Assembly (NCBI RefSeq): GCF_038025025.1
Contig: NW_027117343.1
Span: 1,364,001-1,428,000, forward strand
DNA: 64,000 nucleotides
DNA from: Phyllosticta citribraziliensis
Lineage: Eukaryota
Direction of reading: 5' to 3'
The translations under genes were made by a program, and so were the position numbers. Positions 761 to 4,093 of the stretch are shown here, one piece after another. How positions within the stretch are numbered: position 1 is the stretch's first letter; the number at the start of each line of letters is the position of its first letter. Below the pieces are notes generated by a model, which made no database searches, had not been told where the DNA came from, and worked only from the letters and a program-made list of their open reading frames with translations.

Positions 761-1056
761 GGCGACGGCGGGGTTGTAGTTCGAGTTGCGGTCGTGGAGC
801 TCGTTCGCAGCTCAAGAAATCCTTCGGGGCGGATCATCCCCTCGGGGCCGGGATCGACGACATGCTGCGGCGGACCTCCGAGCTCTGTCCCTCTCTCTAC
901 TCTTTTTGCCCCACTCACCCGCCTTTGCTTGACCCTGGAGTCGCGATTCAAACATTTGATCCCTTGATGTTCTAGCGCCACCTTCAATCTGTCTTCGCTC
1001 GGCCTCTCCCAAACTCTCCCGCGTCTGCGGCAGAGAATACCATACACGACGTCACA

Positions 1057-2543
1057 ATGCGCCGGCGGTAGCACTCGCCTGGGCGGGGCGGCCTCTTTAC
1101 AACCTTGGACTTTTCCTATTTCACCATCACGATCCCTCAAATTCAGTCGGAGAGAAAACAGGTCAGTCCAGACTATTCATTGAAGGTTTCAATGCTCACA
1201 CTCACAGCCATGTCGTTTCTCCGCGATCATTTAGCACGTCTACTCGACTTCAGGACGAACCAGAAGATCGTCGAGACGCTGCCCGTCGTATTTACATCCT
1301 TGGAACCGGCAGTGTAGGAAAAATGCTGGCGTTCTACCTCCGCACGATCCCAGACCCACCTCCCGTCACGTTGCTATTCCACAAGCCATCTATCCTCAGA
1401 AAATGGCATGCGGCCGGAAAAGAAATAACGCTCCAAGCGCGAGGCGTAACAGAAAAGATGGGTGGGTACGACGTGGAAATGGCGATGCCCAAACGACGCG
1501 AACATGGCAAGGAAGTCGACTATGATAAAGACTTTATGCGGACCTATGTTCCTCCCACGGCCATCGAAGAGGGATTTCGTTATACCTTTGGCGACATTGA
1601 GTATGCCACGCAGCGAGGACTTGGTGTCGAGTCGCAAGAGCCGATTCACAACTTGATAGTGACGGTCAAGGCTCCCGCAACAGTGTCCGCCATTAGCGCC
1701 GTCAAACATCGTCTCTCGCGCGATTCGACCATTGCGTTTTTGCAAAACGGCATGGGACAAACGGACGAAGTCAGCCGCGAGCTGTTTGACGACGCAGAGA
1801 CACGTCCTTCATACATTCAAGGCATCATCTCGCACGGCGTATCCTCGCCGAGCCCCTTTGTGGTTAACCACAACGGCACCGGCACCATCCAGCTCGGTCT
1901 GATGCCACGTCCGGATGGTCTTGCAACGCCCAACCCATCCCCAGCGGTAGACCATGACGTCCCCCAGGAACCGCCTTCGGCGTGGGCCAAGTCTGCCCGG
2001 TACATTTTGCGCACCATAACGCGCACGCCTGCGCTCTGCGCGATCAGCCTCTCGCCCCCCGACATCCAAAGCGCGCAGCTCGAAAAGCTGGCCATCAACT
2101 GCCTCGTCAACCCGCTGACGTCGCTCCTCGACGTCCGCAACGGCCACTTGCTCAACAACTACCACCTGACGCGGGCGACGCGGCTCCTCCTGTCCGAAAT
2201 CAGCCTCATCATCCGCTCCCTCCCGGAGCTGCAGGGCCTGCCCAGCTTGCGGACGCGCTTCGCGCCCGACAGGCTCGAGGCCATGGCCATGCGCGTGGCG
2301 GCGCTGACCAAGGACAACGTCAGCAGCATGCTGGCCGACGTGCGGCGCGGCAACCAGACCGAGATTGAGTATCTGAACGGGTACATTGTGCGTCGCGGAG
2401 AGGAGATGGGCGTGCGCGCTGTCATGAATTACATGATCATGGCCATGGTCAGAGGCAAGAGTGCTATTGTGGAGAGGGAGCGTGACGAGGAGGTCAGTGT
2501 GTTGAGGCCCGAGGACGATGTGCGGCATGGCAGTGGTGAGTAG
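1057..2543 (+). CDS. Ketopantoate reductase (PanE/ApbA)-like protein, probably mitochondrial; 5' end uncertain
   Basis: The frame of ORF 1323-2543 extends upstream through RIYILGTGSVGK (Rossmann GxGxxG) and RSFSTSTRLQ. It contains LIVTVKA, FLQNGMG, KLAINCLVNPLT, NVSSMLADV and TEIEYLNGYIV, typical PanE motifs. Start at 1057 assumes intron 1068-1207 (see findings). Confidence 0.85.
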
Positions 2544-3125: not shown

Positions 3126-3227
3126 GGCCTGATGGTCTAGTGGTATGATTGTCGCTTCGGGTTCTCCGCATGTCCTGCAGACATGCCTGTATGTGACAGG
3201 CCCCGGGTTCGAATCCCGGTCAGGCCC
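3126..3227 (+). tRNA. tRNA-Pro (anticodon CGG) with 30-nt intron at 3162-3191
   Basis: Acceptor stem GGCCTGA/TCAGGCC, D arm GTCTAGTGGTATGAT, anticodon stem GTCGC/GTGAC with loop TT-CGG-G|T, T arm CCGGG-TTCGAAT-CCCGG; TTTTT Pol III terminator at about 3233. Confidence 0.95.
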
Positions 3228-4093
3228 CATTCTTTTTGCTTTGCTCTTCTTTTTGGCTGGGTGGTCGTTACTGAGCTGGGGATGGCGAGGGAGTTATTTT
3301 GGAGAAAGGAGGTGGTGAGGAGAGGTTTTGGCCGGGTTGACACAGGTGGGAGATGCGTTTTGGAGCTCTGGATGCGTGCCGCGGTGAGTGGTGATGAGAC
3401 GCTGTGGTGTTGAGGTTGGGTGCCACGTGGGGGCGGAAAGACCACGCGAGACTACGCGATGCCATGCGACGGACCTTCAAATATGCTTAATTGGGAAAAC
3501 GTAGTATCGCATGGCACAGCCAACCAAAATGTAGGACAGTAGAAAGTGTCGGCGCCACAGATACATCCAAAAAGGAACTCGGCCACGACGATCATAGCAA
3601 AAGAAGTGCAAAGGAAGCGCTTGATTGCAATTTGGTGATCTTTGTTGGTGCTTTTGAATTGACTGCAAGTCCCTGAAGATTTCCCAAATCCATGCCGGCG
3701 GTTCCTTCAAGAGACTGCTAGAATCGACGACAAACTTGGAAGTGGCTTTTCAGACCATCATCTGCATTTTGTCTCCGCCAATGGAACCAACAACTGAAAA
3801 GGTTGAGTGTTTACATTTTCGTTTGCGTTATCCAACCAAGTGCTCGAGTCGCTCCTGCTTTTCAAAGCCCCCCCAAGTCTCCACCTCCGCACATGTATTT
3901 GTACAAACAAAAAGGATCTCAGGCGCAGAAGAGCTCTGCTTCTATGCACTCTTCACCACACTCTACTCACTCTGCCTCTTCCATCGAACCATCACCACAG
4001 CCTCACCAAACACTCCATCACTTCAACACATTGACGGAACTCTTGCGTCCCAGTCCAATCCACAACAATCACCCCACAAACAAAATCACCACC

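Follow-up and report, generated by a model that had tools for sequence, protein, structure and literature searches.

The window, a stretch of 64,000 nucleotides from Phyllosticta citribraziliensis, carries close to its first base two divergently oriented genes, namely a C1D/Sas10-family gene and a gene that encodes a ketopantoate-reductase-family protein, a predicted NADPH-dependent reductase (Table 1). The ApbA and ApbA_C domains of the latter score above the curated cut-offs (PF02558, 84 bits; PF08546, 107 bits), and TIGR00745 reaches 180.8 over a cut-off of 141.35. Upon alignment to 1yjq, Lys176, Asn98, Asn180, Ser244 and Glu256 in ketopantoate reductase from E. coli, whose catalytic and binding roles have been described (PMC3478992), correspond to K293, N180, N297, S373 and E385 of the product (P0001). 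All five are invariant in 60 homologues, and the same catalytic residues are also found in ketoisovalerate reductases. Among named homologues, Phyllosticta proteins come closest (97% to P. citrichinensis). The C1D/Sas10 gene starts about 150 nt from the beginning of the RNA-type contig cover of the reductase, and orthology is supported by the retention of this neighbour upstream of the reductase in 27 of 38 related loci. This genome possesses six ApbA_C loci; the five further ones (G000 C3, C4, C7, C9; L086-L090) are distant, with about 23% identity where alignable, and lack the leader element described below.

Open from 960 to 2543, the reductase frame carries the cofactor-binding motif ILGTGSVG (1296-1319), and its first ATG lies at 1323, behind that motif. 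The first-pass annotation had drawn attention to this absence of a simple start, and its observations were confirmed on the sequence: the spliced frame contains no AUG before the Rossmann motif, and the upstream ATGs give only short or out-of-frame products (M-F-stop from 967, MRRR-stop from 1057, and an out-of-frame reading from 1210). Two ATGs missing from its list are located at 862, 5′ of all RNA-type contig cover, and at 1192, within the intron. The public annotation starts at ATG1323, yielding 406 aa without the GxGxxG motif, and the same truncated model (406 or 405 aa) has been adopted for P. capitalensis and two members of the P. citricarpa cluster; the full product of a CUG start would comprise 502 aa.

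Transcript evidence was taken from four of five runs of contigs, whose RNA nature is presumed and which lose rare variants. In three of the four runs, representing three organisms, exactly 46 nt with GT..AG ends are skipped, and a loose end in the fourth agrees with this removal, so that the GTCAGT..CAG intron predicted earlier, whose excision connects the enzyme with a frame that lacks an ATG (from 968 on), holds. Splice joints other than 1161^1208 were found in none of the four runs, one of which has a contig depth of 1650. Nor was any insertion or deletion found in them, 965-975 included, which refutes the earlier suggestion of a 1-nt indel near 970 restoring ATG967; all 33 differences listed for run X3 spare ATG967, CTG989 and 1057-1071. 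The contig starts between 914 and 928 are a weak hint only, as contigs cannot fix a transcript start. The cover is unbroken from there to the junction in three runs, and therefore leaves no room for an upstream AUG exon. An exon beginning at ATG862 was considered and rejected: it lies outside the contig cover, and no hand-checked listed GT donor/acceptor pair gave the frame. Among 39 distinct orthologues (see below), 10, the window included, likewise lack an in-frame AUG ahead of the GxGxxG motif, in a tally for which the introns of 14 sequences were set by a rule of thumb, three of them only approximately. Because of these AUG-less orthologues and the lack of indels in four runs, the absent AUG is not due to chance or assembly error.

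Table 1. Features of the reductase leader and its surroundings (positions in the window).
Feature	Position	Strand	Remarks
Divergent C1D/Sas10-family gene	2-760 (first exon 580-760, end approximate)	-	Starts at 760
5′ leader reached by RNA-type contigs	914-966	+	Contig starts 914, 928, 918, 914; no ATG within
TGA stop upstream in the CUG frame	965-967	+	TAA in organism B (G966A)
uORF1, ATG-TTC-TAG	967-975	+	AUG context weak; 13 nt separate its end from the CUG
Putative start context TTCAAT-CTG-TCT	983-994	+	CUG codon 989-991; conservation in 39 orthologues
Coding exon 1, predicted to be CUG-initiated	989-1161	+	N-terminus resembles a presequence, with 8 Arg/Lys and free of acidic residues before residue 56
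Local hairpin	1014-1035	+	Begins +26 from the CUG; energy near -11.5 kcal/mol; orthologues have clade-specific hairpins at this offset
uORF2, ATG-CGC-CGG-CGG-TAG (M-x-x-Arg-stop)	1057-1071	+	Overlaps the main frame out of frame; contains the "GTAGCA donor"
4-bp hairpin position, GGCC-N4-GGCC	1082-1093	+	+26 from the uORF2 AUG; in this genome just 3 of the 4 pairs can form
46-nt phase-2 intron, spliced	1162-1207	+	RNA-type contigs; similar phase-2 introns in Pleosporales-like loci
Coding exon 2	1208-2543	+	Rest of the presequence, GxGxxG (1296-1319), ApbA and ApbA_C domains
Out-of-frame AUG frame	1210-1317	+	35 aa; stop 1315-1317; ends 5 nt before ATG1323; lineage-specific

A protein profile of 60 homologues led to 195 related places in metagenomes, of which the best 80 were used. 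Thirty-four loci, anchored by eye on the peptide, trained a nucleotide profile from which the window was left out; the leucine codon at the anchored position is CTG in all 34. This profile matched 68 of the 80 loci as well as the window (972-1096, E 9.8e-14). Seven of the 12 unmatched loci have no more than 216 nt before the protein match, while the others (L031, L033, L044, the duplicate L045 and L078) bear AUG-started, presequence-like N-termini in place of the cassette; many Aspergillus and Onygenales proteins also possess such N-termini and no element. Collapsing at 90% identity left 39 sequences (38 metagenome loci and the window; 25 from the training set and 14 not; mean identity 47%), which are related, so that the counts below are not independent. 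We take them to represent Pleosporales-like and Capnodiales-like Dothideomycetes, Knufia/Endocarpon and Acarospora/Pleopsidium, together with clades without a close named protein. Intron-bearing orthologues have a phase-2 intron of 45-55 nt near +173 to +194, and L064 is cleanly intronless when compared with L060. By profile, no copy of the element was found at the five paralogous ApbA_C loci or at two other pattern matches, and a genome-wide search for a regulon with the CUG and uORF2 pattern returned three matches against three in the reversed control.

Several lines of evidence converge on the CTG at 989, which had been listed earlier only as an alternative start and is now strongly supported. 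The start column reads CTG in 39 of 39 distinct sequences, including all 14 outside the profile training, where the column was mapped by the profile, and CTG makes up 22% of the leucine codons in the same genes. The context is constrained as well (A at -3 in 39/39, C at -4 in 37/39, C at +5 in 37/39). The intron-removed frame from 968 reads GGAAS..SRRENS up to the junction and continues beyond it with HVVSP into the enzyme. Across this junction, annotated proteins of the P. citricarpa group (P0003, P0124, P0125) match gaplessly, and P0141 (an ORF of the Lasiodiplodia cluster) and P0038 (Pleopsidium) match further upstream, from residues encoded at 983 onward; exon 1 is therefore coding in the CUG frame. 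Indels in the region keep the frame, the distances differing by multiples of three. The first 20 residues counted from the CUG contain no acidic residue in 38 of 39 sequences and a mean of 3.4 Arg/Lys. As expected of a near-cognate start, the codon is conserved, stands in a good context, is open in frame to the main ORF and is followed by a conserved extension. On this comparative evidence, translation very probably starts at CUG989, and the composition of the extension makes a mitochondrial targeting presequence likely. In the 10 sequences mentioned above, the CUG looks like the sole start, since no in-frame AUG is present there. Elsewhere, the Eurotiales-like proteins P0330, P0375, P0349, P0365, P0367 and P0390 show FKVS, KVS or KLS at the place of the CUG, a hint of GUG or CUG starts.

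The importance attached to ATG1057 in the first-pass annotation is also well founded: this out-of-frame ATG is invariant (39/39). Its A occupies a main-frame third position behind 10 different residues and is yet unchanged. It lies at +68 from the CUG in 25 of 39 sequences, at +56 in six, and within +53 to +71 in the rest, and only one other ATG occurs in the 2535 nt between CUG and uORF2. The fourth codon of uORF2 is Arg in 36/39 (CGG 24, CGA 7, AGG 4, AGA 1), the fifth is a stop in 37/39 (TAG 17, TAA 12, TGA 8) with about 12 changes of type on the tree, and C directly follows the stop in 36/39; the stop is lost in two sequences and the Arg in three. This pattern suggests that uORF2 is very probably translated and under selection. 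An in-frame AUG follows uORF2 in 29 of 39 sequences, mostly 34-106 nt past the stop (range 1-169 nt, 28 measured).

uORF1 appears less rigid. An upstream AUG is present within 60 nt of the CUG in 36/39 sequences and its frame ends before the CUG in 33/39; uORF1 has five codons or fewer in 30/39, compared with 3, 8, 15 and 7 of 36-37 in four control bins. A at -3 is found for only 7 of 47 upstream AUGs, their position varies from -15 to -59, and reverse-strand ATGs are equally frequent in the region (35/39). Because of the weak context, the variable place and these reverse-strand ATGs, uORF1 is the least certain part of the cassette. Variants of the arrangement were observed as well. At the place of window positions 1073-1075, P. 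citricarpa-group proteins (P0003), L081 and L046 have gained an in-frame AUG immediately after the uORF2 stop position, and in the latter two the uORF2 stop itself is lost. In L028, L048 and L050, uORF1 and uORF2 are fused, with an AUG at -28 spanning 36 codons across the CUG to the uORF2 stop. CAA-TTG follows the uORF2 stop in L005, L056, L060 and L061, which is near the readthrough context CAR-YYA after a stop.

RNA folding adds to this picture. Energies are near zero over the CUG, and the most stable windows start at +22 to +28 (hairpin windows +22 to +31); in 37/39 the best window exceeds its synonymous recodings in stability (mean z -1.7; -11.5 versus -4.8 in the window). A study of structure-assisted initiation (START; PMC11165317) places the optimum hairpin offset for CUG at +23 to +26, and its thresholds in mammalian lysates are -15 to -22 kcal/mol. 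The hairpins here resemble it in position, beginning at about +25 to +30 after the CUG and at +26 after the uORF2 AUG, but they are far weaker than those thresholds (about -5 to -12 kcal/mol), and the sequences of those behind the CUG differ between clades. The hairpin downstream of uORF2 is fully paired in 31/39 (91% paired, 10 compensatory cells, 0 of 500 shuffles as high), figures that apply to a hairpin picked by eye from the same sequences, with compensatory changes reducing to about three events. RNAalifold found no common structure across the orthologues, and an Rfam scan of 780-1330 to E 10 gave two chance matches far below threshold. A different hairpin (1064-1079), proposed earlier to enclose a splice donor, can form in the window, but it is fully paired in only 1/39 sequences and shows no covariation beyond that of shuffles (52.6% paired, 271 of 500 shuffles as high).

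That hairpin belonged to a splicing interpretation, according to which a minor or conditional donor, GTAGCA at 1068, would fuse ATG1057 to exon 2 and toggle the gene between a uORF and the enzyme. The 1067^1208 join would indeed bring ATG1057 in frame, as a sequence check confirmed. Wherever the downstream intron is present it is in phase 2, so that the reading frame would survive such a join in those sequences as well. GT is retained by 13 of the 14 sequences with the intron, compared with 15 of the 25 without it (Fisher p 0.06, kinship ignored). The phases and this retention bias leave a small chance of a minor splice isoform. However, the contigs, in which rare forms can drop out, show 1161^1208 alone, and the 1067^1208 joint is absent even from the run with a contig depth of 1650. 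The donor is not conserved among orthologues either: GT is absent in 11/39, with about seven changes on the tree, and +5 is G in 0/39. The "GTAGCA donor" consists of the last G of the uORF2 Arg codon and the stop, the element persists in 25/39 orthologues that need no intron there, and conservation of a coding type extends from the CUG across the stretch that the splice would remove. The idea of a recursive splice site fares no better, given that the bases before the donor vary (GAC, AGC, TCG, AAG, AAA, AGA, GAA) and 1146-1161 is purine-rich. The fungal TPP riboswitches that control splicing likewise have an intron as well as a uORF in their 5′ region; here, by contrast, no Rfam family, and hence no aptamer, reaches threshold in 780-1330, and neither a conserved second donor nor a second junction in the contigs exists. 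Taken with the unconserved hairpin, these observations make the splice switch highly improbable.

We consider it probable that the CUG and the uORFs together form a conserved translational cassette in the leader of this ketopantoate reductase of the Pan5/Cbs2 family, with a logic like that of cpc-1. The mechanism is inferred by analogy to Neurospora cpc-1 (PMC5487733) and Cryptococcus eIF1 (PMC7049704). The 46-nt intron would be removed constitutively and translation would start at CUG989, yielding the mitochondrial protein, with output set by uORF1, the CUG in its optimal context, a hairpin, uORF2 and a second hairpin. Scanning subunits would mostly leak past the weak uORF1 AUG, and those that use it would reach the CUG, 5-44 nt further on, before being reloaded. 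The CUG itself would be used by a minority, aided by context and hairpin, and the remainder would be caught by uORF2. In the 29/39 sequences with a later in-frame AUG, re-initiation or bypass may produce a shorter form without most of the presequence; in the 10/39 without one, including this genome, uORF2 would be a sink that prevents a truncated enzyme. As in cpc-1/GCN4 and eIF1, output may then follow how stringently start codons are selected and how much initiator tRNA is available. Whether such regulation would be condition-dependent or a fixed dampening is, in our judgement, evenly balanced.

In the cpc-1 leader, conserved across Pezizomycotina, a short uORF1 is followed by main-frame near-cognate starts that precede an out-of-frame AUG uORF2 and so bypass it (PMC5487733); the corresponding short uORF1 and out-of-frame uORF2 downstream of a near-cognate codon are present here in 33/39 and 39/39. 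The cpc-1 uORF2, however, has 35-70 codons, several near-cognate codons are used and a main AUG is always present (PMC5487733), whereas here we find one invariant CUG, a four-codon, Arg-ending uORF2, hairpins, a presequence extension and no in-frame AUG in 10/39. Nor does uORF1 here have the strong conserved context that permits re-initiation in leaders of the cpc-1/GCN4 type. In Cryptococcus eIF1, a poor-context AUG main start precedes an out-of-frame AUG ORF that catches leaked ribosomes, in an autoregulatory circuit (PMC7049704). The reductase leader shares the weak start and the catching ORF, but the weak start is a CUG, the gene is metabolic or mitochondrial, and an extra uORF lies upstream. 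Fungal mitochondrial isoforms in which a near-cognate start adds a targeting sequence upstream of the AUG form are likewise known (PMC6582344; tRNA synthetases, PMC7049704), without the conserved out-of-frame AUG that lies between the two starts here; PAN5 and CBS2 are not mentioned in the main text of PMC6582344.

The main rival shares the CUG start and differs in how uORF2 acts. Slow initiation or termination at uORF2 would stack scanning subunits back onto the CUG and raise its use, so that the leader would respond not to general stringency but to arginyl-tRNA, termination efficiency or a metabolite. Such a queue would suit the potential slow-down elements, namely the fourth-codon Arg, always purine-ending, the stop followed by C, and the hairpin 11 nt behind the stop, as well as the common 68-nt spacing; queuing has been reported to help non-AUG starts, reportedly in AZIN1. 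Against it, the spacing also ranges over 53-71 nt, the third-position purine of the Arg codon may be forced by the main frame (Gly/Asp), and a uORF2 stall would stand in the way of ribosomes that elongate from the CUG as well. We regard queuing as unlikely, and a bolder version as somewhat less likely still, in which uORF2 and its hairpin would form a sensor (of arginyl-tRNA, termination speed or a polyamine- or CoA-precursor-like metabolite) that acts backwards on the CUG by queuing, thereby switching the gene between a mitochondrial form that serves cytochrome b synthesis in the manner of Cbs2/Cbp7 and a pantothenate enzyme of the cytosol. If true, one gene would do the jobs that yeasts split between CBS2 and PAN5. 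The least credible alternative, which we consider very remote, places the conservation at the DNA level, as transcription-factor or initiator sites of the short divergent promoter that both genes share, with the enzyme starting at ATG1323 or another downstream AUG. The public start at 1323 here and in P. capitalensis and the conserved divergent neighbour would fit, as would CGG/CCG triplets, which resemble zinc-cluster transcription-factor sites. Nevertheless, beginning at 1323 would cost the enzyme its GxGxxG motif, which hardly varies among 60 homologues; indels keep the frame; three different stop codons interchange; and the region lies within the spliced transcript.

The protein may act as Pan5 or in the manner of Cbs2/Cbp7. 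Cytochrome b depends on mitochondrial proteins that resemble Pan5, namely Cbs2 in yeast and Cbp7 in S. pombe (PMC8565316), and the reductase step in fungi has been called poorly defined (PMC11428646). No yeast sequence was among the best 120 matches listed in each of three homologue searches or in the PDB search, and the Atlas likewise gave no link to Pan5 or Cbs2. Compared with Pan5, Cbs2 and Cbp7, the protein studied here has the common ApbA fold with all catalytic positions, keeps the enzyme active site and contains long inserts. The cassette may be useful for learning how fungi split a pantothenate-pathway enzyme or cytochrome-b factor between compartments, and points to an undescribed translational control that would set the amount of the mitochondrial form. 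Few conserved non-AUG starts have been described in filamentous fungi, and fewer as the sole start of a gene; Wei et al. (JBC, 2013) are said to list conserved non-AUG extensions in Neurospora. We found no description of the CUG-uORF leader in a literature consisting mostly of openly accessible papers, where a listing in a supplementary table is possible. A compact cassette, invariant across several ascomycete classes, would offer a ready reporter for the cooperation of uORFs and near-cognate starts, and public 406-aa models that lose the cofactor-binding motif can be corrected.

Downstream of the reductase, an intron-containing tRNA gene lies at 3126-3228 on the forward strand; it was missed by ARAGORN without the intron option and identified with that option as tRNA-Thr(cgt) with a 30-nt intron, an anticodon call that is uncertain.
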